From the IMG/VR virus record IMGVR_UViG_3300025000_001646, positions 20,487 through 84,486 of that record: a DNA stretch of 64,000 bases. One strand, 5' to 3'. Below the pieces are notes generated by a model. It searched no databases. It worked only from the letters and a program-made list of their open reading frames with translations, and was not told the DNA's origin. The DNA comes from a virus. Of this stretch, positions 1 to 57,285 are shown in pieces. Within the stretch, counting starts at the first letter, position 1. Each line of letters begins with the position of its first letter. The position numbers and the translations under genes are program-made.

Positions 1-1
1 G

Positions 2-586
2 GTAGATGCAGATGACGAAAATAAACTTGAAAGAGAATATATAAGATACCATAGAATGATTGAAGAGATGCTTTTAAACAAATTAAACTTAGCAAAAAGA
101 AGTGTATTAGATATTGGTTGCTGACCTTATTCAATATTAAATTTATTAGATTGTAAAAAAAAGACAGTTATAGACCCTCTTATTGATGATTATAATAAAC
201 ATTTTGGTTTTAATCCAGAAATTAATTATGTAAAATGAGTAGGAGAAAAAATGCCTTTTGAAAAAAATAGTTTTGATTTAGTAATAACAATGAACTCGCT
301 AGACCATTGTGAAAATCCAGATGAAGTAATTAAAGAAATCAGAAGAGTAATAAAACCAAGCGGATATTTAGCAATTCATATTTGTATTAACAACGCCATA
401 AACAACCCACACCCTAGCCACAAAATCAATATAAATAGCGAATGGCTACATAATAGACTAGACGATATGTTTGAAACTGTCAGCGAAAAAGTAGTGCCTT
501 ATTGATGGCAGATTGACAAAACAACAGGAAAAAGATGACAGCCAGCTATTGCTTTACTTATGCGAAATTGTAACTTTAACAAATAA
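2..586 (+). CDS. Class I SAM-dependent methyltransferase (5' truncated by window; TGA=Gly)
   Basis: VLDIGC(tga)PYS SAM-binding motif, MPFEKNSFDLV, NSLDH; frame stays open to TAA 584-586 only if TGA is read through. Confidence 0.85.
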
Positions 587-762
587 TGAAAAAAACTTGC
601 AATCAATGTAAAGAAGAAATGATTCTTATAGACAATCTAGAAATTTTTGAGAAGAAAAAGAAAGAAAGTAAGTCTATATTTAGAGCCTATGTTTGCAGGA
701 ATCCTAAATGCCCAAACTATGCTTTATTACAAATTCCTTTAGAGGAAATGACTAAAAATTAA
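586..762 (+). CDS. Small zinc-ribbon protein
   Basis: CNQC...CRNPKC, 58 aa, TAATG overlap with upstream gene. Confidence 0.6.
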   Translation: MKKTCNQCKEEMILIDNLEIFEKKKKESKSIFRAYVCRNPKCPNYALLQIPLEEMTKN

Positions 763-949
763 TTTTATTTATTTATGAAAAAAGAAGAAAAAATTAAAAT
801 ACCTCAAATTGAAATATCTCAAAAAGTAATTGATGTATTAACATTAGACGAATTGAAAATAACAGTAAATTTATCAAAAATACTTATAAAAAATCATCCA
901 TTAATAAAAATTAAAATTTCATAATATTTAATATATAAATAATTTACCT

Positions 950-1801
950 ATGAAAAAACCATTAATCTGATTTATTTGACAAGGTTGGATTGGAAAAAAT
1001 TATTCTGATGACCTTGAAAATAGATGTTATGAAGTTATTAGATACTCTCTTGATCCTCAATATATTTGAAACAAAGACAAAATAAAAGACGCCGACATTG
1101 TATTTTTAGCTGTTCCTACTCCAAGCACTCCAGAATGATTTGACTTTTCAATTGTTAGAGAATGATTGAGTCTTGTTTGAGATTGAAAAATAGCCGTTAT
1201 TAAGTCTACAATCTTGCCTTGAACTACCGACAAATTACAAGCAGAATTTCCAGAAATTTATCTTTTTCACTCTCCAGAATTTTTGGCAGAGGCTACAGCT
1301 AAACAAGATGTAGAAAATCCAGACAGAAATATAGTTGGCTATACAGAAAAATCTCAATGTAAGGCTAGTGATGTTATGAGCGTTCTTCCAGTAGCTCCTT
1401 ATGAGAAAATAATTCCAGTTAAAGAAGCAGAACTTATTAAATATGGCGGAAATTGTTTTTTCTATTTTAAGGTTATTTATTGAAATTTGCTTTATGACAT
1501 GGCTAAGAAACTTTGACTTGATTATGAAATAGTACTAGATTGAGTATATAATGACAAAAGAATCGGCAGGACACACCTCAATCCTATTCATAAAAATTGA
1601 AGATGAGCTGGAGGCCACTGCTTCGTCAAAGACCTTTGTGCCTTCTACGAACTATATTCTAAAATTAATTCAGAAGACAAAGAAGGTATAGAACTTTTGA
1701 GAAAACTACAGGAAAAAAATATTAAACTTATGAAGGATTCAAACAAAGATTTAGATTTATTGAAAGGAGTATATTGAGAAAATTTAACTTTAAACTTTTA
1801 A
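950..1801 (+). CDS. UDP-glucose/GDP-mannose dehydrogenase family protein (TGA=Gly)
   Basis: Rossmann I(tga)FI(tga)QGWIG, VPTP, KSTILP(tga)TT, SPEFL, GGHCFVKD catalytic-Cys motif. Confidence 0.85.
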
Positions 1802-2740
1802 ATGATATTAGTCACTGGTGGTTATTGATTTATTGGTAGCAATTATATAAAACACTTAATCGAGAAATGAGAAAGTGTTATTAATATTGATAAACTTACT
1901 TATGCTTGAGATGTTTCTAATCTTCCAGAAAGTGACAAAATAAAGAATTTTCAAATTGACATTAATGACAAGAATTTAGTATATGATGTATTAAAAGAAT
2001 ACAAGCCAGAAACAATTATACACTTCGCAGCCGACAGTCACGTGGACAATTCGATTCAAGACCCTAGCCCTTTCATAGTCAATAATATTCTTGGAACTTA
2101 TAACTTACTAGAGGCTCTTAGAAAATATGGAAAAGCTAAAAAAATAATTATAATTAGCACTGACGAAGTGTATTGAAGCACCGAATATTGGGGTGTAGAA
2201 GAAGATTATAGATTTGAGCCAAACTCTCCATATTCAGCCTCTAAGGCTTCTGCCGAATGCTTAGCTTATTCCTATTACAAGACTTTTGACTTACCTATTA
2301 TTATAACAAGAAGCTCTAATGTTTATTGACCTAACCAACAAGAAGAGAAGCTAATACCTAAAATAATTTCCAAATCATTAGATAAATCGGAAATTCCGAT
2401 TTATTGAAATGGTAAAAATAAACGCTGGTGGTTGTCTGTATATGATTTGTGTAATGCTCTTGATTTATTAATTAAAAAAGGAAAAGTTTGAGAAAAATAT
2501 AATATAAAATGAGACTCTGAACTTTCTTCATTACAGATTGCTAAAATATTTAAAAAAACAATGTGAGATGATTTGAAAATTAAGTTTGTAGCTGACAGAA
2601 AAGCACACGACAAGAGGTATAATATTAATGACAGCAAGATTAGAGAATTATGATTTAGGAATAAACATAAATTTAAGAAAGAATCGAGAAATTTGGTATT
2701 TAATTTTATTACTAAACTTTTTGAAAAATGGAAGGATTAA
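1802..2740 (+). CDS. rmlB: dTDP-glucose 4,6-dehydratase (TGA=Gly)
   Basis: MILVTGGY(tga)[29 protein letters not shown](tga), PYSASKA. Confidence 0.9.
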
Positions 2741-3621
2741 CTTTCGTTGAAAATTTCGCTTATGAAAGAGATTGAAAAAGATGCCGACACTGTGGCACCA
2801 ATGAGAATATAAAAATTTATAAAATAGATGAAAAGAAAATAACTAGAACAGCAGGAGTAGACAATCTTATTACTCTTTGTAAAGATTGTTACAATAAAAA
2901 ATTCTTTAATGAAGAAGAAAATGTTTGTTGAGTAATTTTAGCTGGTTGAAAAGGCACAAGGATGGCTCCAATAACTAATTTCTTAAATAAACACGAATTA
3001 CCAGTAGGCAATAGACCAATGGTTTTTCATCCTCTTTTCACTCTTAGAGAATTATGAATTAAAAATGTATTAGTTATTTTCGAGCGGTATAATACTGGAA
3101 GAATGATTGAGGCTCTAGGTAATGGAAGAGAATTTGGAATGGAAATAACTTATAGAATACAGCATTGAGCGGGTGGTATTGCAGACGCTCTTAGTCTAGC
3201 TAAAGATTTTGTTTGAAATAGAAATTTTTATGTTATTCTTGGAGACAATATTTTTGACAATAACGAGATTGGAAAATTTAAAAAATCTGTTAATCCAAAA
3301 GTATTCATTAAACAAGTAGCCAATCCAGATGAATATTGAATTGGGGAAATTATAGATTGAAAAATAAATAGGATTATAGAAAAGCCTAAACAATATATAG
3401 GTAATATGGCGGTAACTGGACTTTACCATTATACTCCAGATGTATTCGACATTATTCAATGATTAAGACCTTCTTGAAGAGATGAGCTTGAAATAACAGA
3501 CATAAACAATTACTACTTAAAAGAATGAAAACTTGATTATGAAATTATAGAAAGTTATTGGGTTGACTCTTGATGCAATCTTTCATCATATATAGAAGCT
3601 AATAAAATTTTTAATCTTTAA
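2728..3621 (+). CDS. rmlA: Glucose-1-phosphate thymidylyltransferase with N-terminal HNH-like Zn-finger (TGA=Gly)
   Basis: RD(tga)KRCRHCG...NLITLCKDC, then VILAG(tga)KGTRMAP, LGDNIF, EKP, RDELEITD. Confidence 0.8.
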
Positions 3622-3626
3622 AAAAT

Positions 3627-4595
3627 ATGAAAATATTAATTACTGGCGGGGCTTGATTTATAGGATCTAGTCTAGCACAAAAACTTTTAACAAGAGAATG
3701 AATAGAAGAGATTGTTATAATTGACAATTTGAGTACTGGGAATAAAAACAATATTCCTAAAGATGAAAAAATTAAGTTTATTGAATGAGATGCTGGAGAC
3801 ACTGAATTAATTAAAGACTATGATTTTGACGAGATTTATCACTTAGCTAGTGCCGCTTCTCCAAAGAAATACCAGATTTATGCAATTGAGACTATGATTG
3901 TAAACGCAGAAGCTACCAGAAAACTTCTTGATTATTGCGTAAGACAATTAAAAGAAAAGAAAAGAAAAGTCAAATTTCTATTCGCTTCTACTAGTGAAAT
4001 TTATTGAGAACCAATTAGTCATCCTCAATCTGAAACAGATCTTTCAAGAATAAATATTAATTGACCTAGAGCTTGTTACGATGTTTCAAAAGCTTATGGA
4101 GATGTTTTGACAAGATTATATGCAGAAGAAAAAAAGATTGACACCAAAATAGTGCGAATTTTTAACACTTATTGACCTGCTTTAGATAAAAAAGATGGAA
4201 GAATAATTTGCAATTTTATTGAACAGGCTAAGAAAAAAGAACCATTTACAATTTATGGAGCTTGAAACCAAACAAGATCTTTCTCTTATGTAGATGACAC
4301 TGTTGATGGAATATTGACTGTAATGGAAAAAGGTAAATCTGGGGAAGTATATAATGTTGGTAATCCATTTCAAGAATTTACAGTAGAATCAGTTGCCAGA
4401 ATAATTTGTAAAATATTCCGAAATGAATATAGTGTTATTCGAAGAGATTTACCACAAGATGATCCTAGCAAACGAAAACCATCTATAAATAAAATACAAT
4501 CTTTAGACTGGAATCCTAAAGTAAATATATATACAGGAATAAAAAAAATGATTGGAGAAGAACTCCTTTCCGAAATAGAATCATTTACAAAATAA
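3627..4595 (+). CDS. NAD-dependent epimerase/dehydratase, UDP-glucuronate decarboxylase-like (TGA=Gly)
   Basis: ITGGA(tga)FIGS, HLASAASP, ASTSEIY(tga), PRACYDVSK, RIFNTY(tga)P, QTRSFSYVDD, DDPSKRKP. Confidence 0.85.
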
Positions 4596-4607
4596 TCTTA
4601 AAAAAAA

Positions 4608-4934
4608 ATGAAATTCAAAATTACTGACAAGAATTGAAAAATAGTAAATTCAGCAAAATTTACAATTGAAGATTGAGAAATTAAAAAACTTATTGTAGAT
4701 AAAGAACCAGATGAAATTGATTTTTCTAAAAATAAATTAGATCTTTACAAAGAGTTAGATGCAGATCAATTTAATATTGAAATGTTTGATGAAAAACCAA
4801 ATGAAGAAAAAGTTGAAGAGAAAAAAGAAGAGCAAAAAATTGAAGAAAATAAAGAGGAAAAAGTTGAAGAAAAACCAGAAGAAAAAAAAGAGGAAGTAAA
4901 AGAAGAGCCTAAAGAAGAGCTAAAAAGTGAATAA
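4608..4934 (+). CDS. Hypothetical protein with Glu/Lys-rich tail (TGA=Gly)
   Basis: Open only with 2 TGA read through; low-complexity EEK tail. Confidence 0.55.
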
Positions 4935-5670
4935 TTACTTATTAGGAAAAGATTGATTTATTGGAAGTAAATTAGCAGAGAGGCTTGAAAATCTCTCTGT
5001 TTTTGAATGAGATTTTTTGAAAGACCAATTTGATTTAAAAGGAATAGACTATGTCTTTCACTATATTTCTACAACAGTACCTTTTTGATCATTCGCAGAA
5101 AAAGACATATATGAAAATTTGCTTAATACTATTAGACTTCTCAATGCTTGTGTATTGAATAAAGTAAAGAAAATTATTTTTCCGTCTAGTGGTTGAAGCC
5201 TATGCGAAGAGCCAAAAAGCTCCCACGCTATAATCAAACGAACTATTGAGGATTTTCTTAAGTATTACCAAAGACAATATTGACTTGATTATTTAATTCT
5301 AAGGTATACGAATGTTTATGGTTACAATGAAAGACAAAATATTTGATTAATTAATAATATGATTAGATGTGCTTTGCATTGAGACATTTTTTTACAATAT
5401 TGAGACTTAAAAAAGAATTATATTTATATCGATGACGCTATTGACGAAACAATTAAAAATTTAGACAGAAAAAATGAAACTATTTTAATTGGTGGACAGA
5501 CTTACAGAGCAAGCGAAATTGAAAAAATAATCAATAAAAATTATTGAAATATTAGAATAGAACATTTAGAACCGTCAAAATTTGATGTAGAATATTTTTG
5601 ACCAGAATTTATTACTAATACTACTATAGAAAATGGAATTAAAAAAATTGCGAATAGGTATATTGGCTAA
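4927..5670 (+). CDS. NAD-dependent epimerase/dehydratase (TGA=Gly)
   Basis: GTG start, LLGKD(tga)FIGS, FPSSG(tga), LRYTNVYG. Confidence 0.7.
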
Positions 5671-6646
5671 TTGTATTGAAGTTCCACCTCTTTCTTATGG
5701 ATGAATTGAAAGGGTTATTTTTCATACAGTTGAAACATTAAATTGACTTGGTTATGATGTTGTTTTGTTTGCTCCAAAATGAAGTAAAGTAAGTTGTAAA
5801 CTGGTAGAAGTTAGTTGATGGAATGATGAGACAGATGTTTTTTACGAGGCTTTTAAGAAAGAAAATGAAATAAAACCTTTTGATATTTTGCACGACTTTA
5901 ACGCTTCGGGCTACAAGAACCCAGAAAGATTTAAACATAATTATTGTTGCACAATTATTTCTTCTGGCTATTGAACAGGAGTAGTCAATGAGCCAAACCC
6001 TATTTTTCAAAGTCAAGCACAATTAAATTGAGCAAGAGAATTTATAAAAGACCTAGATGCTCCAGTAGTTTATAATTGATTAGACAACGAAAAAATAGTA
6101 TATAACGAAAACAAAGATGATTATTTTTTATATTTAGGAAGGTACGATTGGCAAAAAGTCCCACATATAGCAATTGAGGCAGTTAAAAAGGCTTGAGTGC
6201 CTTTGGTAATGTGCTGATACAATGCAGATGACAAATACTATAAAGAAAAAGTTGAGCCGTTTTTTGACTGAAAACAAATAATTAATCTGGGAGCAGTTAG
6301 TGAAGATATACAGTCAAGATTATTAAGTGAAGCCAAAGCACTTTTATTTCCTTCCAATTGGAGAGAATGTTTGGCAATAGTTTTATTACAAGCTCTAGCA
6401 AGTTGAACTCCTATAATAGCAGAAACTTTTGACTGAAAAAATTGTATTCCAGAAGTAATTGAAAATTGAAAAGAAGGTTTTATTGTTAAGTGAAGCTATG
6501 AAATGGCAGAGGCTATTAATAATATAGACAAAATTAAACACATGGATTGTCGTGTTAAGGCAGACAGTCTTTTTACTAGACAAAAAATGGTTGAAGGTTA
6601 CTTAAAAATCTATTATATATTATTGGAAAACAAAAAAACCTCTTAA
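5633..6646 (+). CDS. Glycosyltransferase family 4 (TGA=Gly)
   Basis: VPPLSYG(tga)IERV, YLGRY, FPSNWRECLAIVLLQALAS(tga)TPII. Confidence 0.85.
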
Positions 6647-6736
6647 TTAAAAGAGGCTTATTTGCTAATCTAATCTATAAAACCAATCAAACATTAACAC
6701 CAAAATAATTATAGCAATTATAAATTTAAAAATCAA

Positions 6737-7525
6737 ATGAAAATTTCAATTTGTATGGCGGTTTTCAATCGGGCTGAACTTTTGAAAAATGCTATCAAAT
6801 CTCTTTCTATACAAACAAGAATACCAGATGAAATAGTAATAGTAGATGATTGAAGTGACGCTAAAAATGATTTAAAACTTGTTTTAGATAATTTTCCTTG
6901 ATTAAATATAAAACTACTAAGAAGAGAATCAAAACTATGGAATAACCCTCCTATACCTCTAAATTGAAGTGTCAAGAATGCTACTTGAGATTTAATAATC
7001 TTTTCTTTCCCAGACATAATTCATTACAATTTCGATAATATAGAAAGATTGGAAAAAATGTTTGAAGAAAATAGTAATCAATGTATTGTAGGAGCTAAGA
7101 TTTATTGGCAAGGCAAAGATGTTCTTTTACCAGAGAATATAGTAGAAAATCCTAAACTTATTGACGATTTTAATGTAAAGACTTGGTATAACTGATTTGT
7201 TTCAAAAGATGATGAGGTTGTAATTACAGAAGACTTGCAAACCAGCAATATAATGGCAGTTACTAGAGAAAATTTTATTAAGTTATGAGGTTTTGATGAA
7301 GAACTTTCACAAAGTTATTGACACGAAGACAGCGAATTTCTTAATCGTTGCCATAACAACGAAATAAAAGTAAGTAGAGACAATTCTATAATATGAATAC
7401 ACCAGTGGCACAAAAGACCACCAGTTTATGCTGTGGCTAATTTAGAGAGTAAAAGAGATTATTTAAATGCTAGAAGAAAAATATTAACCGCTAATGATTG
7501 AAAAGATTGGGGTAATCTTATTTAA
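6737..7525 (+). CDS. Glycosyltransferase family 2 (TGA=Gly)
   Basis: ISICMAVFNR, VIVDD(tga)SD, (tga)GFDEE, (tga)HED, HQWH. Confidence 0.85.
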
Positions 7526-20157: not shown

Positions 20158-20996
20158 CATTTATAATATATGGACACTAATATAGGAGACTGCGAAATAT
20201 GCAGAAAAGAGCCAGAACTTAGCGAATATATATATAAAAAATGTTTTTTTGAAACAGATAATCCTAGAAAAGCACAGGAACATTTTAGTCAAACAGGACA
20301 TAATGTTAAACACTTTATTAAAGTAGTAAAAACCTGGAAAAAAGATATTTTATTTCATAAATATATTTGCCAATGAATTTATATCAAAAACTAGACTATT
20401 CACAACCAATACAAAGCGTAGAGATAAAATCATCTCATTCTTGTATATTTCCAGTATGGAGACTGATAGTCAATAAACAAGAACTTGATTTTTGGGACAG
20501 AAAAACAGAGCATAGAGATGGACTTACTAAAGAAGAATTGAAAGAAAAACTTATTAATTTATATCCTAAACTTTCAAAACATTTATGCCACCAGATATCT
20601 TAATTGATGATACGACTATTGATAAAATAAATATAAAACAAGATACCGATTATACCACTACAGGAGGAATTTTAATACAATAAAATCCTATAATAGATAT
20701 TTTTGCGGATACATTTTGTGATAATGATATTGCGGAAATAAGTAAGCAAAAAGCAGAAAAATTAAGAAATTTAATATATCCTATAATTTAATATAACTAT
20801 GTATTATATTTCAGAAACAGCACCAATAGGAAGCTATGTTTGTATTAGAGAAGACGGAGGAGAACTTATTTGGTGGCAAATAAGAGATAAACAAGGAGAA
20901 AGCTTTCTTATTAAATACCAAGATTTTACTAGAGTAATACCAATCGGTAGCGAAATAGTATCTTGGAGAAAACATAAAATTTAACCTTACCTAACA

Positions 20997-21741: not shown

Positions 21742-22842
21742 ATGATTACACTTTGTGATTTAAACAAATCACTGATTAAAAAAGCTAAAAAACTGAAAGG
21801 AGAAATAGAATTTAAAGCAGTATGTGGAGATATATTTGAATATCAAAAAAAGAATGGTGGACTGATAGCAACTGCCTCTAATCCTAGTTTCAATATGGGA
21901 GGAGGATTAGATGGAAAGATCGCAAAAAGATTTCCAGAAGAAGTAAAACAAGCTAAAGAGTTTATGTATACTGATAATTTATTCTTTACTGTTACGGTTG
22001 ACAATGAATTAAAATCTTCAAGAGAAATAATAAAAAGAGCATTAGCAGGATGTTATGCTTATAGAAGCATAAACATTATTATTAGTGGATTCGGTACAGG
22101 TATAGGAGGATTAGATGAAGATATTTTTATAGAAGAATTAGAATGTATTATTAATGCTGACTTGAGACATGCTAACTTGGGAGGTGCTGACTTGGGAGGT
22201 GCTAACTTGGGATATGCTGACTTGGGAGGTGCTAACTTGAGAGGTGCTAACTTGGGAGGTGCTAACTTGAGAGGTGCTAACTTGAGAGGTGCTAACTTGG
22301 GAGGTGCTAACTTGAGAGGTGCTGACTTGAGAGGTGCTGACTTGGTAGGTGCTAACTTGGGAGGTGCTAACTTGAGAGGTGCTGACTTGAGACATGCTAA
22401 CTTGGGAGGTGCTGACTTGAGAGGTGCTGACTTGGGAGGTGCTAACTTGGGAGGTGCTAACTTGAGAGGTGCTGACTTGAGAGGTGCTGAAACAGATAAC
22501 GTTATAGTTGACGAAAGAACTTGTTTCTTTTCATTACAATGTCCAGAAGAAGGTAGTTTTATAGGTTGGAAAAAGTGTAGAGATGGTAAAATAGTAAAAC
22601 TACTAATCACAGAAAAAGCTAAAAGAAGTAGTGCTACTACTAGAAAATGTAGAGCATCTGAGGTTGTAGTTTTAGAAATAGATGGTAAAAAGACAGGAAT
22701 AGCAGTATCTCTTCAAGATGAGAAGTTTATTTATAAAGTAGGAAAAACTATTAAAATAAAAGACTTTGACGAAGATAGATGGAATGAGTGTTCGTCAGGT
22801 ATACACTTCTTTATCACCAAAAAAGAATCTATTAATTATTAA
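21742..22842 (+). CDS. Macro domain + pentapeptide repeat + DUF5758-like fusion protein
   Basis: [27 protein letters not shown]; A(D/N)LxG repeats; [12 protein letters not shown]...RKCRAS...ECSSGIHFF. Confidence 0.8.
22156..22488 (+). repeat. 15-bp tandem repeats encoding pentapeptide repeats
   Basis: GCT(G/A)ACTTG(A/G)GAGGT units. Confidence 0.95.
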
Positions 22843-25863: not shown

Positions 25864-25923
25864 TATGGCTTGAATTAGATTGAGTTATCTTAGATTATAT
25901 TAATTTCTATTAAATTACTTTTA
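25864..25923 (+). repeat. 5-nt periodic array 1 (NTT-NN)
   Basis: TATGG CTTGA ATTAG ATTGA GTTAT CTTAG ATTAT ATTAA TTTCT ATTAA ATTAC TTTTA. Confidence 0.8.
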
Positions 25924-25945
25924 TTATTTTATTTTTATTTATTTT

Positions 25946-26488
25946 ATGAAATACAATTTTACTATTAAATTTACATCTCAATACTTACAGGCTAGATTTT
26001 CAGATGAAGCAAAGGAAGGTTTATTGGAAAATGCTAGAAAAACAGTTATTAAAGACGTAAAAGATGAAGATGAGATGTGGTTAAGATTTTCTTATTTTGA
26101 CAAAAATGGTTATTATATACCTGGAGAACAAATATATATGGCTTTAGTTTATTCTGGAAAAGATTTTAAAATGAAATCAAGCAGATGCAATATTTCAAAT
26201 TATATTAAAGCAAATCTTATTGTTAGCGAATTTAATTATTTAGGAAAGAAAAAACCAGATGAATTAATTGTTTCCTATGTAAAAAGAAAGGATGGTAGTA
26301 GAGTAAAGGTTATTCACCCATCTTTTAAACAAGGAACAGAATGTGATTTTGAAATTGATTTTATTGATGATTATCCAGAAAAAGAACTTAAACTACTTAT
26401 AGAAAATGCAGGAAAAAGATGTGGAATAGGAGCAAGAAGACCAAGATTTGGAAGATTTGAAGTTACAAGTTTTAAAAAAGCAAAATAA
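25946..26488 (+). CDS. Stand-alone Cas7/RAMP-like RNA-binding protein
   Basis: N-terminal strand YNFTIKFTSQYLQ, YYIPGEQI (cf. RAMP IPGSS), C-terminal Gly-rich loop AGKRCGIGARRPRFGRFEV. Confidence 0.7.
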   Translation: MKYNFTIKFTSQYLQARFSDEAKEGLLENARKTVIKDVKDEDEMWLRFSYFDKNGYYIPGEQIYMALVYSGKDFKMKSSRCNISNYIKANLIVSEFNYLGKKKPDELIVSYVKRKDGSRVKVIHPSFKQGTECDFEIDFIDDYPEKELKLLIENAGKRCGIGARRPRFGRFEVTSFKKAK

Positions 26489-26548
26489 ATTGGTTTACAT
26501 TTGATTAAATTAGATTAAATTCCCTTAAATTAAATTTAGTTGAATTTA
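26489..26548 (+). repeat. 5-nt periodic array 2 (NTT-NN)
   Basis: ATTGG TTTAC ATTTG ATTAA ATTAG ATTAA ATTCC CTTAA ATTAA ATTTA GTTGA ATTTA (12 units). Confidence 0.85.
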
Positions 26549-26550
26549 CA

Positions 26551-26590
26551 CTAGCTAGATTATGTCTAGCTAGATGTGAGTTTGACTCAC
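26551..26590 (+). other. Hairpins separating arrays 2 and 3
   Basis: CTAGCTAGA-TTATG-TCTAGCTAG and GTGAG-TTTGA-CTCAC. Confidence 0.75.
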
Positions 26591-26596
26591 TAATTT

Positions 26597-26666
26597 ATTG
26601 GATTAAATTTAATTATATTTCGTTAGATTGATTTTGATTATTTTATATTAAATTAAATTAAATTTG
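26597..26666 (+). repeat. 5-nt periodic array 3 (NTT-NN)
   Basis: ATTGG ATTAA ATTTA ATTAT ATTTC GTTAG ATTGA TTTTG ATTAT TTTAT ATTAA ATTAA ATTAA ATTTG (14 units). Confidence 0.85.
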
Positions 26667-26720
26667 TATTTTTTTATAAAAAAGGTATATAATATTAATA
26701 GACAATAACTTTTAAAAAAT

Positions 26721-27202: not shown

Positions 27203-27239
27203 AATTATTAGACTGGTTTAAACGAACCAGTCTATTTAT

Positions 27240-27306: not shown

Positions 27307-27373
27307 CGAGAAGTAGTTTAAGGAAAACATTAGCTACAAGCTAATAATCTAGGGTCGATACCTAGCTTCTCGA
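27307..27373 (+). tRNA. Degenerate short tRNA-like gene (loop CT-ACA-AG)
   Basis: Acceptor CGAGAAG/CTTCTCG, D arm GTTT/AAAC, ATTAG/CTAAT, T arm CTAGG-GTCGATA-CCTAG; no encoded CCA. Confidence 0.5.
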
Positions 27374-37899: not shown

Positions 37900-37974
37900 G
37901 CGGGGATGAGGTAAAGTCTAGCCTGAATCGCTTCAACCGATTAAGTAGGGGATAGTCTCCCCTTCTCCGCTCCA
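37900..37974 (+). tRNA. Opal-decoding tRNA-Gly, anticodon TCA
   Basis: Acceptor GCGGGGA/TCTCCGC + T73 + CCA (Gly identity G1-C72, C2-G71, G3-C70, U73); D stem AGGT/GCCT; AATCG-CT TCA AC-CGATT; T arm AGGGG-ATAGTCT-CCCCT. Confidence 0.9.
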
Positions 37975-53122: not shown

Positions 53123-54973
53123 ATGGCAGTTTTAACTAGTGCAGTTGTAGCAGGTCAAACAGCTACGGCGGTACAATATAATAATCTAAGAAATGATGCT
53201 TTAACAGCTGGTCATATTAGTCTTCAGACTATTACTGGAGCAACTAAAACAGTAGTAGCAAACGAATGATACATTTCTCAAAATGATAGTGATAGAATAG
53301 TTTATACTTTACCTACAACAGCTAGTGTTGGAGATGTTTTTATAGTTACTGGAAAAGGTACTGCTGGCTGGAAAATTGCTCAAAATGCTTCTCAAATTAT
53401 TTATTTTTGAAAGGTTTCTACTACTACTTGAGCTAGTTGATACATTCAATCTACTTGAAACAATGATTCAGTTACATTAGTTTGCACTACTACTAATAAT
53501 GGTTGGACTGTAACAAATTCTATTTGAGAAATAACTTTAGATTCTGGTTGAACAAATAATGCTATTGACTGAATTATATGATGAGACGGAAGCGATGGTG
53601 CATTGTCAATCGGTGCTGGAGCAACTACAACTCTTAATACAAATCAAGTTTATAATTATAGTTCTATAGACATAAACGCAACAGGAACACTTGCTTTCAC
53701 AGGTGCTAATGGTGCGGCTCTTATAAACTGTAGTGGAGACGCTACAATCGCAGGAACAATAGAACTTCGCAATCTAGTAACAACTGCTTTCTCTGCCTAT
53801 ACCTCTAACAAGGATAGTCTGATGAGCGGAAGTGCTTATACTGCTGTAACTTATAATGCTGGTGGTGCAGGTGGTACAGCTGGTGGTGTTGCAGGTAATG
53901 GTGGAACAGGTGGAACATCTACTACTGCTTCTGGTACTCCTGGTACTGGTGGTGCAGGAGGAACTTCTGGTAGCAAAAATGGTGGAAATGGAGAAGGTGG
54001 TAATTCTACTACTGGAGGAGGAGGAGGCGGTGGTGGATACGGAGATGGAAATGGAACTGCTGGAGCTACAACTGCCAATACTAATGGAGGTGCTGGAGGT
54101 GCTGCTGATGCAACATCTACTGGTCCTGGTGCTGGAGGAGGCGGTGGTGGAGGTGGATTGACAACTGGAAACGGAGGTGCGGGTGGAGCTGGAGGAGCTA
54201 CTACTAGTGTAAGTGGTGGAGAAAACGGTGGAATAGGTGGTAACGGTGGTGCTTCTGGTGCTAGTGGTGGAAATGGAGGAAATGGTGGACAAGGAGGTGC
54301 TTGCACTAGAACTGTTTCTGGTATAGGAGGTAACGGTGGAGCTGCTTATGCTACTGGTGGTACTGGTGGTGCAGGTGGTGGAGCTAGTGATGATGGACAA
54401 GGTGCAGCAGGAGGAGTAGGAGGTAATTCTTCTCATGGAACTGGTGGTGTTGGCGGAACTGGAGGTAATACCGTTAATGGTAATATTGCTGGTGTTGGTG
54501 GAGCTGGAGGAAATGGAAGAATAGGAGGTGCTGGTGGAACTGGAGGTAACCCTGGTTCTTCTGGAGCTAATGGTGCAGCTGGTGGTGCAGGCGGTAATGG
54601 AACATCTGGATCAACTTGTCTAGCAATGTATGTAAAAGGAGATCTAACCATATCTGCAACTGTAACAGCTAGTGGTGGTAATGGAGGTAAAGGTGGAAAT
54701 GGTGGAAATGGATTTGGTGCTGGAGCTGGTGGGGCTGGAGGTGCTGGCGGAAGTGGTGGAGATGGAGCAGATATAATAATACTATGCAAAGGAACACTTA
54801 CTAATACAGCTACTATAACTAATACAGGTGGTAATGGTGGAACAGGAGGAACAGGAGGTAATGGTGGAGATACTAACTCTACAACTATTGGAAAATCAAA
54901 TGGACAAAATGGAACCAATGGAAGACAAGGTCGTGATGGTCGTAAAATAGTTGCTTCTATTACTAACCTTTAA
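53123..54973 (+). CDS. Glycine-rich tail fiber / receptor-binding protein
   Basis: N-terminal anchor with about 10 TGA, then TGA-free Gly-rich GGxGGxG repeats. Confidence 0.75.
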
Positions 54974-55408: not shown

Positions 55409-55684
55409 ATGAATATAAATGATTTAATACCTTTCTGAACTAAAATACTTGTCAAAGTAATTAATCTTGAAGAAAAAGGCTGATTAAGTTTACCAGAGAC
55501 AGAAGAAAAACCATCTGTCCTTTTTTGAGAAGTATTAAAGGTTGGTAATGGTGTAAAGACTTTTAAGGAAGGTATGGTTGTTTTATTCGACAGGTACAAA
55601 TCAAATTACTGTCCTATTCCTTGAGACTTTAACGAATACAGATTTACAATGCCTAAATATATACTTTCTTACTTTACTAAATAA
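55409..55684 (+). CDS. groES: Co-chaperonin GroES (TGA=Gly)
   Basis: LIPF(tga)TKILVK, KG(tga)LSLP, (tga)EVLKVG.G, VLFDRY; directly upstream of GroEL. Confidence 0.8.
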
Positions 55685-57285
55685 TGGCTAAAATAGTTTA
55701 TTTAAACAACGAATGAAAACAAAAAGTCCTAAAAGGTATATTTACTGTTACTAATGCAGTTAAATGAACTCTTTGACCTAAATGACAAAATGTAATTCTA
55801 GACCAAAAGTTTTCTTACCCTAAAATTACTAACGACGGTGTTACAATAGCCAAAGAAATCGAATTAGAAGACCCTACAGAAGAGATTGGATGTAAGTTAA
55901 TAAAACAGGCAGCAATTAAAACAAACGACGAGGCTGGCGATTGAACGAGTACCTCAACTGTGTTTGCAGAAGCCATTATTACAGAATGATTAAAAGCTAT
56001 TGAGGCTGGTGCTTCTCCTATTTTACTCAAGAATAATATTATAAATATTTCAAATAAGGCAATAGAAATTATAAAGAGAAATGTTGTACCTATAACTAAA
56101 GAAGAAGAAATTATAAATGTAGCCACTATTTCATCTCAAGACGAAAATATTGGTAAAATTATTGCTGAAATTACCGACAAGGTATGAGAAAGCGGTGTAG
56201 TAACAACAGAAGAAATGGCAGAGGTAGGAATTAAAACCGAATTAGTAGAAGGATTAAAAATTGACAATGGTTATTTTTCACTTGATTTTGTTACTGACAG
56301 AAAGAGACTAGAGGCAGTTAGAAAAAATTCTAAGGTCTTTATTACAGATGATACAATTACTAGCGTAGAAGAAATGGCTAGTATTCTTCAAGCTCCTTTC
56401 AAGGCTAATTTTAAAGAGGTTGTTATTATTGCTTCAACAGTAGAAAAAGGGGCATTATATACGGCTCTCAAGAATCATATTGAGGGCAATATTTCTGTTC
56501 TAATTATTAAAGCTCCTTGATATGGAGACAGGAAAATCGAGATGTTAAAAGACATTGCTACTATTACAGGAGGCAAGGTAGTCTCTAAACAATTTGGAAG
56601 AGATTTAAAGAAGGTAACTATGGAAGATTTTGGAGAGGCTGAAACAATCAAGGCATATAAAAATTATTCTGTTATTATAGGCGGTAAAGGTAACAAGGAA
56701 GACCTAGAAAAAAGAAAAGAGGAAATACAATCTCTTATTGAACAAACTACTTCTGACTTTGAGAGGGACAAATACGCTCAACGCCTTTCTCTTCTTAACG
56801 GTGGAGTAGGTATAATCAAGGTAGGTGCTTCCTCTAAGATTGAACTTGATGAAATTAAATATAGAATAGAAGACGCTCTAAACGCCACTAAAGCCGCAAT
56901 AGAAGAAGGTATACTTCCTTGAGGTGGTACTTCTTATTTAAAGATTTTAAACGAATTAGATCAGTATAAGAATGGAGATATTAACAATGATATGGCAGTC
57001 AATATAATCCAGAACGCTCTTAAATACCCTTGTAAAACCATAGCTGAAAATGCTGGGAAAGATGGTGGTTATATTGTAGGAAAGGTTATGGAAAAATATG
57101 AAGATTTTAACTATGGTTATAATGCTAAAACAGATGTATTTGAGGACTTAATGGAGAGTGGAGTAATAGACCCTTTTAAAGTAATTAGATTAGCATTACA
57201 GAATGCCACTAGCGTAGCATCTATTTTCTTAACCACGAATACAATCGTAACAGATATAACAGATGTTGAAAAAGACAAATCATAA
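55684..57285 (+). CDS. groEL: Chaperonin GroEL (TGA=Gly)
   Basis: TL(tga)PK(tga)[18 protein letters not shown](tga)TSTS, KAP(tga)[14 protein letters not shown]. Confidence 0.93.

Follow-up and report, generated by a model that had tools for sequence, protein, structure and literature searches.

A Vipr-family RAMP gene and three N-U-U/NN repeat arrays in an AT-rich phage point to a VIPR system with a guanine-free scaffold

What is a phage likely to do with a single RAMP-type gene that is bordered by three tracts of five-nucleotide repeats? This question is raised by positions 25,864 to 26,666 of the 64,000-nucleotide stretch of viral DNA analysed here (the window, positions 20,487 to 84,486 of IMG/VR virus record IMGVR_UViG_3300025000_001646). 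A first reading of the letters alone (the original prediction) had proposed a programmable RNA-guided system at this locus and had likened it to viral RAMP systems built on GGY/NN units, which are those published as VIPR (10.64898/2026.04.26.720920). Our analysis places the gene in the Vipr family, and therefore the locus among VIPR systems: it is very probably the VIPR system of a tailed phage, comprising a single Vipr protein and three guide RNAs, one each from the arrays A1, A2 and A3, with N-U-U in place of G-G-Y as the scaffold.

VIPR (Viral Interference Programmable Repeat), a CRISPR-like RNA-guided DNA silencer, was first described in 2026 (10.64898/2026.04.26.720920). As set out in the accessible parts of the preprints, its components are a phage-borne RAMP (Vipr), often an accessory vap gene (10.64898/2026.04.26.720920, 10.64898/2026.04.26.720927), and vrRNAs that carry 9–16 GGY/NN units followed by a structured tail (10.64898/2026.04.26.720920). 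The cryo-electron microscopy structure from phage SUSP1 places one Vipr protomer on each unit, with GGY buried and NN displayed (10.64898/2026.04.26.720927), which is the arrangement that the original prediction had proposed for the locus in the window. The NN strings read double-stranded DNA, one target base being skipped per unit, and binding of Vipr silences the transcription of competing phages and satellites (10.64898/2026.04.26.720920, 10.64898/2026.04.26.720927). The SUSP1 protein grips G1 through H17 and D177 and G2 through R138 and W178, and Y3 lies in a pocket formed by E71, M72, R179, C173 and T175; K33 and R39 hold the target and non-target strands (10.64898/2026.04.26.720927).

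The locus in the window is made up as follows.

25864-25923, + strand: putative vrRNA array A1, opening with a TATGG unit and continuing with 11 NTTNN units; it lies upstream of vipr
25946-26488, + strand: vipr gene, 180 amino acids, Vipr-family RAMP with A16, H124, A163, R164 and R165
26489-26548, + strand: putative vrRNA array A2; 12 NTTNN units, the first of which (ATTGG) abuts the vipr stop codon
26551-26590, + strand: putative structured 3' tail of A2, with hairpins at 26551-26573 and 26576-26590
26597-26666, + strand: putative vrRNA array A3; 14 NTTNN units, opening with ATTGG and closing with three ATTAA units and ATTTG

The three arrays lie on the strand of vipr (+) and keep a strict 5-nt period in the register N-T-T-N-N. 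The original prediction had described them correctly in position, one upstream and two downstream of the gene, and its dinucleotide strings proved right letter for letter, as did the TGG-ending unit with which each array starts (TATGG in A1, ATTGG in A2 and A3) and the hairpins that separate the downstream arrays, of which there are two between A2 and A3. It had also asked whether the periodicity exceeds that of shuffled AT-rich sequence. T-T is in phase in 11 of 12 units in the A1 tract and in 12 of 12 in the A2 and A3 tract; none of 2000 dinucleotide-preserving shuffles equalled this, their maxima being 10 and 9, respectively. Across the whole 84,486-base genome, A1, A2 and A3 are the only arrays of at least 11 units, all on the + strand, and the six further matches that reach the detector threshold are of 7–8 units and lie elsewhere on the – strand. 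A coding role for the arrays was discarded, no open reading frame (ORF) of at least 40 amino acids being present in 26489-26720.

As RNA, the repeat tracts are unstructured (z-score +1.2 for A1 and +0.76 for A3), and the region after A2 is predicted to fold at –19.7 kcal/mol (z-score –5.0), a stability that none of 200 shuffles matched; its second hairpin, at 26576-26590, is a terminator-like site. There is no hairpin after A1, from which a T-rich run reaches the vipr start codon, and a weak A/U hairpin follows A3. Matches to promoter consensus sequences near the locus were not clearly above those in shuffles and none was convincingly placed, and an Rfam search near the locus returned tRNA only.

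The protein had been called Cas7/RAMP-like on its hallmarks, and both the call and the hallmarks hold: the IPG motif is I58-P59-G60 and the C-terminal glycine-rich loop runs from G156 to F171. A profile of six clade members matches one solved chain, 36pp_D, deposited in the PDB as 'SUSP1 Vipr protein', with an E-value of 1.6e-11 over residues 43-176, and the window protein as a single sequence matches it at 1.9e-7. Its glycine-rich loop motif aligns with SUSP1 residues 168-185, and A16, H124, A163, R164 and R165 align with SUSP1 H17, R138, D177, W178 and R179. The AlphaFold2 model, built from only six aligned sequences and with a pLDDT of 68, is closest in structure to Cas7 from type VII, IV-B and III-A complexes (55 matches at E ≤ 0.001, with 9j9e, 7jhy, 8yhe and 6xn3 at the top). 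A representative library contains 259 relatives at E ≤ 0.001, and PHROGs places the protein in the unnamed family phrog_4652. Pfam, PADLOC and NCBIfam gave no match for it; a scan of viral contigs for close relatives with the single protein, the same contigs scanned with the related protein P0021, and an alignment-based scan of genome contigs were likewise empty. On profile and model evidence, the window protein is a Vipr-family RAMP with a Cas7 fold.

The homologs that the original prediction had suggested collecting show that the arrays are not peculiar to this phage. We assembled 13 loci from IMG/VR and JGI metagenomes whose proteins are 40–61% identical to the window protein; with one locus dropped as lying on the same contig as another (L006, L001) and one as nearly identical to another (L013, L012), there were 12 distinct clade loci with the window included (the window, L001-5 and L007-12). 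All 12 have period-5, TT-phased arrays (11–57 units) on the vipr strand, none on the other strand and no GG arrays, including two loci of 39–40% GC. In the 443 units of 27 clade arrays, T occupies position 2 in 95% and position 3 in 97%, values that are in part by construction because the detector requires 7 of 8 phased units. The information content at positions 1, 4 and 5 is 0.21, 0.23 and 0.13 bit, and positions 4–5 show every one of the 16 dinucleotides. The fixed trinucleotide had been predicted as mostly ATT; its two T stand and its A does not, position 1 being A in only 49% of units and so nearly free, and the scaffold is therefore U-U, not A-U-U.

The comparison set consisted of 83 canonical loci (L014-L096), namely 80 IMG/VR loci from a scan with the DxRP pattern and three named phages, near-duplicates such as the Felixounavirus group being kept. 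The detector finds GG arrays on the gene strand in 73 of the 83 and TT arrays there in none; the other ten have neither, and some of them show other motifs. The three named phages (Felixounavirus tootiki, Mycobacterium phage LittleE and phage DSL-LC04) served as controls, and in each of them it picks up GGY/NN arrays next to vipr and on its strand. The suggestion that a T-based scaffold would be a distinct variant thus holds at the level of the clade (12/12 TT loci against 0/83 canonical ones). Chance AT-richness as the source of the arrays is ruled out by the shuffles and by AT-rich canonical loci (31–35% GC) that keep GG.

Some further regularities were noted in the clade. Arrays often open with a TGG-ending unit, often followed by TTT, as is true of all three window arrays, and many close with two or three ATTAA units. 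We listed 17 GG-ending units that precede phased TT units, at array openings and at some internal sites, in the window, L003, L004, L005, L008 and L011. The TGG openings and ATTAA endings could act as 5' and 3' handles or mark sites of processing. In L003, vipr is bracketed by an inverted repeat of about 25 nt, seen by eye at about 300-340 and 925-960.

Could these arrays be the remains of GGY repeats eroded towards A/T, in a decaying or idle VIPR locus whose guanine-binding residues are lost? A GC content of 28%, the replacement of all four G-contacting residues and the failure to find a target would suit such a locus. Erosion, however, would blur the fixed positions, and these hold T in 95–97% of units over 12 loci, also where GC is 39–40%, and other AT-rich phages with canonical Viprs retain GGY (L039 at 31% GC, L047 at 33% GC). 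The gene does not look abandoned either: the ORF is intact in all clade loci, 42 positions are invariant among six members, and there is conservation among the replacement residues too, all 15 clade rows having H138 and most of them R178. We therefore regard decay as very improbable and retain a working VIPR locus as our interpretation.

Nor does the strand of the guides appear to be in serious doubt. The information-based detector is blind to strand and often describes them as minus-strand AA arrays, and no RNA run is on record among the runs that contain the locus, so that guides transcribed in the other direction, with N-N-A-A-N units, deserve mention. In the three control phages and in 73 of the 83 canonical loci, the G-rich strand, which is the published RNA strand, is the vipr strand. 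In the window, A2 abuts the vipr stop codon and is followed on the + strand by hairpins and a T-run, and on that strand the first unit of every array is (T/A)TGG. We give opposite-strand guides very little credence and read the arrays as putative vipr-strand RNAs.

The residues that hold the scaffold in SUSP1 differ in the clade in step with the repeat. Residues are numbered as in SUSP1 and tootiki, the Vipr of the Escherichia phage tootiki (Felixounavirus) carrying exactly these residue numbers. Among the 12 clade loci, position 17 is A, G or D, position 138 is H in all, position 177 is A, G or T in all, and positions 178 and 179 are each R in 11. The window protein has all four G-contacting residues (H17, R138, D177 and W178) replaced and keeps R179 of the pyrimidine pocket. 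Among 150 representatives, H138 is found in 15 rows, which are exactly the clade, and R138 in 119; R178 occurs in most clade rows. In a 75-row tree, the 15 clade rows fall within a 17-row set with a Shimodaira–Hasegawa-like approximate likelihood ratio test (SH-aLRT) support of 96, the other two rows being P0021 and P0041, an apparently broken one.

The rows next to them, P0052 and P0056, have R138, S177 and F178 and led to a sister clade, which was sampled in 15 IMG/VR loci (L097-L111). Its signature is H-R-S-[F/Y]-R at positions 17, 138, 177, 178 and 179, one of its loci (L110) having a broken ORF. N-G-T/NN arrays lie on the gene strand in 14 of the 15 loci, with up to 98 phased units per locus; in the fifteenth (L105) the N-G-T/NN unit is visible by eye below the detector threshold. 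Over 512 units, G occupies position 2 in 97% and T position 3 in 96%, and position 1 carries 0.17 bit. There are no GG arrays, and one locus (L101) adds 8 TT-phased units to its 24 GT units.

Together, the three clades form a three-state series: G-G-Y with H/N17, R138, D177 (present by construction of the DxRP search pattern in the 80 IMG/VR comparison loci) and an aromatic side chain at 178; in the sister clade, N-G-U with S177; and in the clade of the window, N-U-U with A17, H138, A/G177 and R178. Judged by its residues and repeats, the sister clade is intermediate between the canonical systems and the N-U-U clade, and its data therefore associate the loss of D177 with the loss of G1, and the loss of R138 and the aromatic residue with the change of G2 to U. 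The series also fixes the register as N1-U2-U3 / N4-N5. It fits the roles described in SUSP1, in which base 1 would be freed with the loss of D177, base 2 would follow R138 and residue 178, and base 3 would stay a pyrimidine with R179. The protein family, the arrays and their phase, the clade-wide conservation of TT beside variable positions, and this co-variation of residues and scaffold are directly established.

The same co-variation bears on the idea that the arrays act as DNA, through bending T-T steps or as iterated sites in a regulatory region, an origin or a partition-like element, the Vipr homologue working without them. Phased A/T-rich repeats can curve DNA, period-10 A-tract clusters unrelated to RNA are described in the available text of one preprint (10.64898/2026.10.21.760802), and the sequencing runs that contain the locus include none of RNA. 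DNA bending, however, does not predict fixed bases that track RNA-contacting residues over three clades. A period of 5 with only two of five positions fixed is the anatomy of vrRNAs, which have 9–16 units; the arrays lie on the vipr strand in 12 of 12 loci and never on the other; and they accompany vipr into unrelated contexts in which no other gene is shared. A role as DNA thus seems to us highly unlikely, and guide RNAs remain our reading of the arrays.

How would such a system work? The likely course set out below is a model by homology with SUSP1: that the arrays are transcribed and processed, that filaments form, that the target is DNA, that one base is skipped per unit and what is targeted are all carried over from that system. 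The arrays would be transcribed on the strand of vipr; A2 starts right after the vipr stop codon, so that the vipr transcript is its probable source. Vipr would bind at one protomer per 5-nt unit and form on each RNA a helical filament with 12–14 protomers, and each protomer would bury the fixed bases and display the variable ones. At position 1, base-specific contacts would be lost (H17 to A, D177 to A/G); position 2 would be read as U by the changed pair R138 to H and W178 to R; and position 3 would sit in the retained pyrimidine pocket (R179, E71, C173). The displayed bases could jointly recognise a gapped site of about 36–42 bp in the double-stranded DNA of a competing mobile element, whose transcription the bound Vipr–RNA complex would block.

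Several observations count against this interpretation. GGY, the defining motif of published vrRNAs, is absent from all 12 clade loci, and a clearly structured 3' tail is present on A2 only and not on A1 or A3. The equivalents of SUSP1 K33 and R39 are L and T in the window protein, within a poorly aligned region where the model has a pLDDT below 50. Because the DxRP pattern fixes D177 in the 80 IMG/VR comparison loci, the independent positions there are 17, 138 and 178 alone. When the ORFs up to 3 kb from vipr in the 12 clade loci were compared all against all, no neighbour proved to be shared; no gene other than vipr is common to the 12 loci, and therefore there is no conserved vap. The neighbours of vipr had no informative match in Pfam, PHROGs, PADLOC or NCBIfam. 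The eight sequencing runs that contain the locus include none on record as RNA.

Finally, none of the rules tried revealed a target. Within the genome of the phage itself, the NN strings with skips of 0–3 scored no better than shuffled-order controls, except that the arrays match themselves at skip 3. Exact-pattern (xNN) scans returned no match in IMG/VR for A1, A2 or A3 and none in GTDB genomes for A2, and no A2 target with at most three mismatches was present in two related virus records.

The loss of the position-1 pocket would leave three consecutive free bases per unit (N4, N5 and the next N1), separated by U-U. Reading of DNA by the clade could then be denser and without gaps, by a triplet code that uses three of five RNA bases and covers every target base, an extension that we consider doubtful; contiguous triplets found no target in 418 kb of collected DNA. 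If N1 did pair with the base that is skipped in SUSP1-type systems, the recognition rule would differ from the published 1-nt-skip code, and the clade would have a natural orthogonality both to Viprs of the GGY type and to the solo vrRNAs that satellites use to hijack such Viprs.

VIPR as a kind of system and repeats other than GGY are already in print, and as far as the available text of the preprints goes the G-free U-U scaffold is the new part. The type classification of VIPR includes NNNGG, YNNNG and NNNNG repeats (10.64898/2026.04.26.720920), and GAC/NN, CAC/NN, WGT/NN and TGH/NN are given as examples from 21 non-canonical clusters (10.64898/2026.10.21.760802). A U-U scaffold is not named in the accessible text of the preprints, although Fig. 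S17 of one (10.64898/2026.04.26.720920) and Fig. S10A of another (10.64898/2026.10.21.760802) may list it; in the accessible part of the latter, ATT, NTT, WTT and TTN do not occur as words. Ten clade proteins that we looked up come only from JGI, Logan or ENA assemblies and none from NCBI, so that the NCBI-based census of the first preprint (10.64898/2026.04.26.720920) may have lacked the clade.

The main value added here is the residue-to-base series, in which D177 corresponds to base 1, and R138 with residue 178 to base 2, and which shows the VIPR scaffold to be evolving itself. In practice, vrRNA callers built for GG[C/T]NN or YNNGG would miss the N-U-U clade, and Vipr/vrRNA pairs with orthogonal scaffolds could serve side by side as tools. 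Satellites hijack Viprs with solo vrRNAs, according to the available text of a third preprint (10.64898/2026.10.15.759431), and a switch of scaffold would be a plausible, if speculative, escape from foreign RNAs of this kind.

The window, which is 28% GC, belongs to a virus record that encodes a tape measure, a terminase, a head-tail adaptor and a Sak annealing protein. vipr lies in an early/middle region among genes of DNA metabolism (a MarR-like regulator, a metallophosphoesterase, the Sak annealing protein and an exonuclease). In-frame TGA is frequent in the late/structural genes (1-7500 and 33000-64000) and almost absent from the ORFs at about 8000-32000, vipr included. Two features bear on how this codon is read.

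37900-37974: tRNA with anticodon UCA
55684-57285: full-length GroEL chaperonin (phrog_5725, E-value 2e-124; PDB GroEL, E-value 3e-132)

When the phage GroEL is aligned with the Thermus GroEL (a solved structure), 7 of its 9 TGA positions fall on glycine and none on tryptophan, and this alignment and the UCA tRNA make it most likely that the phage reads TGA as glycine (code 25). The locus would thus place VIPR in a phage with this code. Locus DNA is present in groundwater metagenome runs, and the host is most likely a code-25 candidate-phyla bacterium from groundwater.

Other features of the window were recorded in passing. ARAGORN calls a Cys tRNA with the unusual anticodon ACA at 27307-27373 (Rfam tRNA, 49 bits), and a strong terminator hairpin lies just before it at 27209-27234. 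A 15-nt tandem repeat of 22 copies (88–91% matches, 22155-22488) inside the ORF at 21742-22842 encodes a protein with a five-residue repeat, for which there are matches to several PHROG families without a name. The 616-amino-acid protein encoded at 53123-54973, downstream of the tape measure, has a long glycine-rich region of 9-nt period and no PHROG match, and may be a tail fibre.

Among known systems, class 1 CRISPR effectors share the fold of the protein and not the organisation of the locus. The window protein resembles their Cas7 subunits (type VII Cas7, type IV Csf2 and type III Csm3) in its predicted RRM/RAMP fold, glycine-rich loop and thumb, and the period of its putative RNA is 5 nt as against 6 nt. 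The original prediction had noted the absence of a CRISPR array, Cas5, Cas6 and nuclease, and it was right: no repeat of 25–40-nt period is present in the 64-kb window, and the five locus proteins include no Cas5, Cas6, Cas8 or nuclease. They have no match to a Cas7/RAMP model in PADLOC or to a Cas model in NCBIfam, and the only Cas-model line at the locus is a weak Cas8f match in PADLOC (E-value 0.016) on a 59-amino-acid upstream ORF. A CRISPR-Cas fragment was ruled out, there being no CRISPR-period array and no partner cas genes.

The closer likeness is with Type II VIPR, which consists of Vipr, vap1 and vrRNAs in Escherichia phage SUSP1 and a P. fulva prophage, as described in the available text (10.64898/2026.04.26.720920, 10.64898/2026.04.26.720927, 10.64898/2026.10.15.759431). 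The RAMP is homologous, the system is phage-borne, vipr has one array before it and others after it on the same strand, each putative RNA has 12–14 five-nucleotide units with variable NN, a structured tail follows A2, and no CRISPR array of 25–40-nt period accompanies them. The clade differs from Type II in having no vap gene and the window in having no evident tail on A1 and A3; the window scaffold is N-U-U instead of G-G-Y, with H17, R138, D177 and W178 replaced. With YNNNG VIPRs, which are N-G-Y/NN in this register, the locus shares two fixed and three variable positions, and the sister clade L097-L111 is of that N-G-T/NN kind. In contrast to the non-canonical motifs named in the accessible text of the preprints, all of which hold G or C, N-T-T/NN holds neither.

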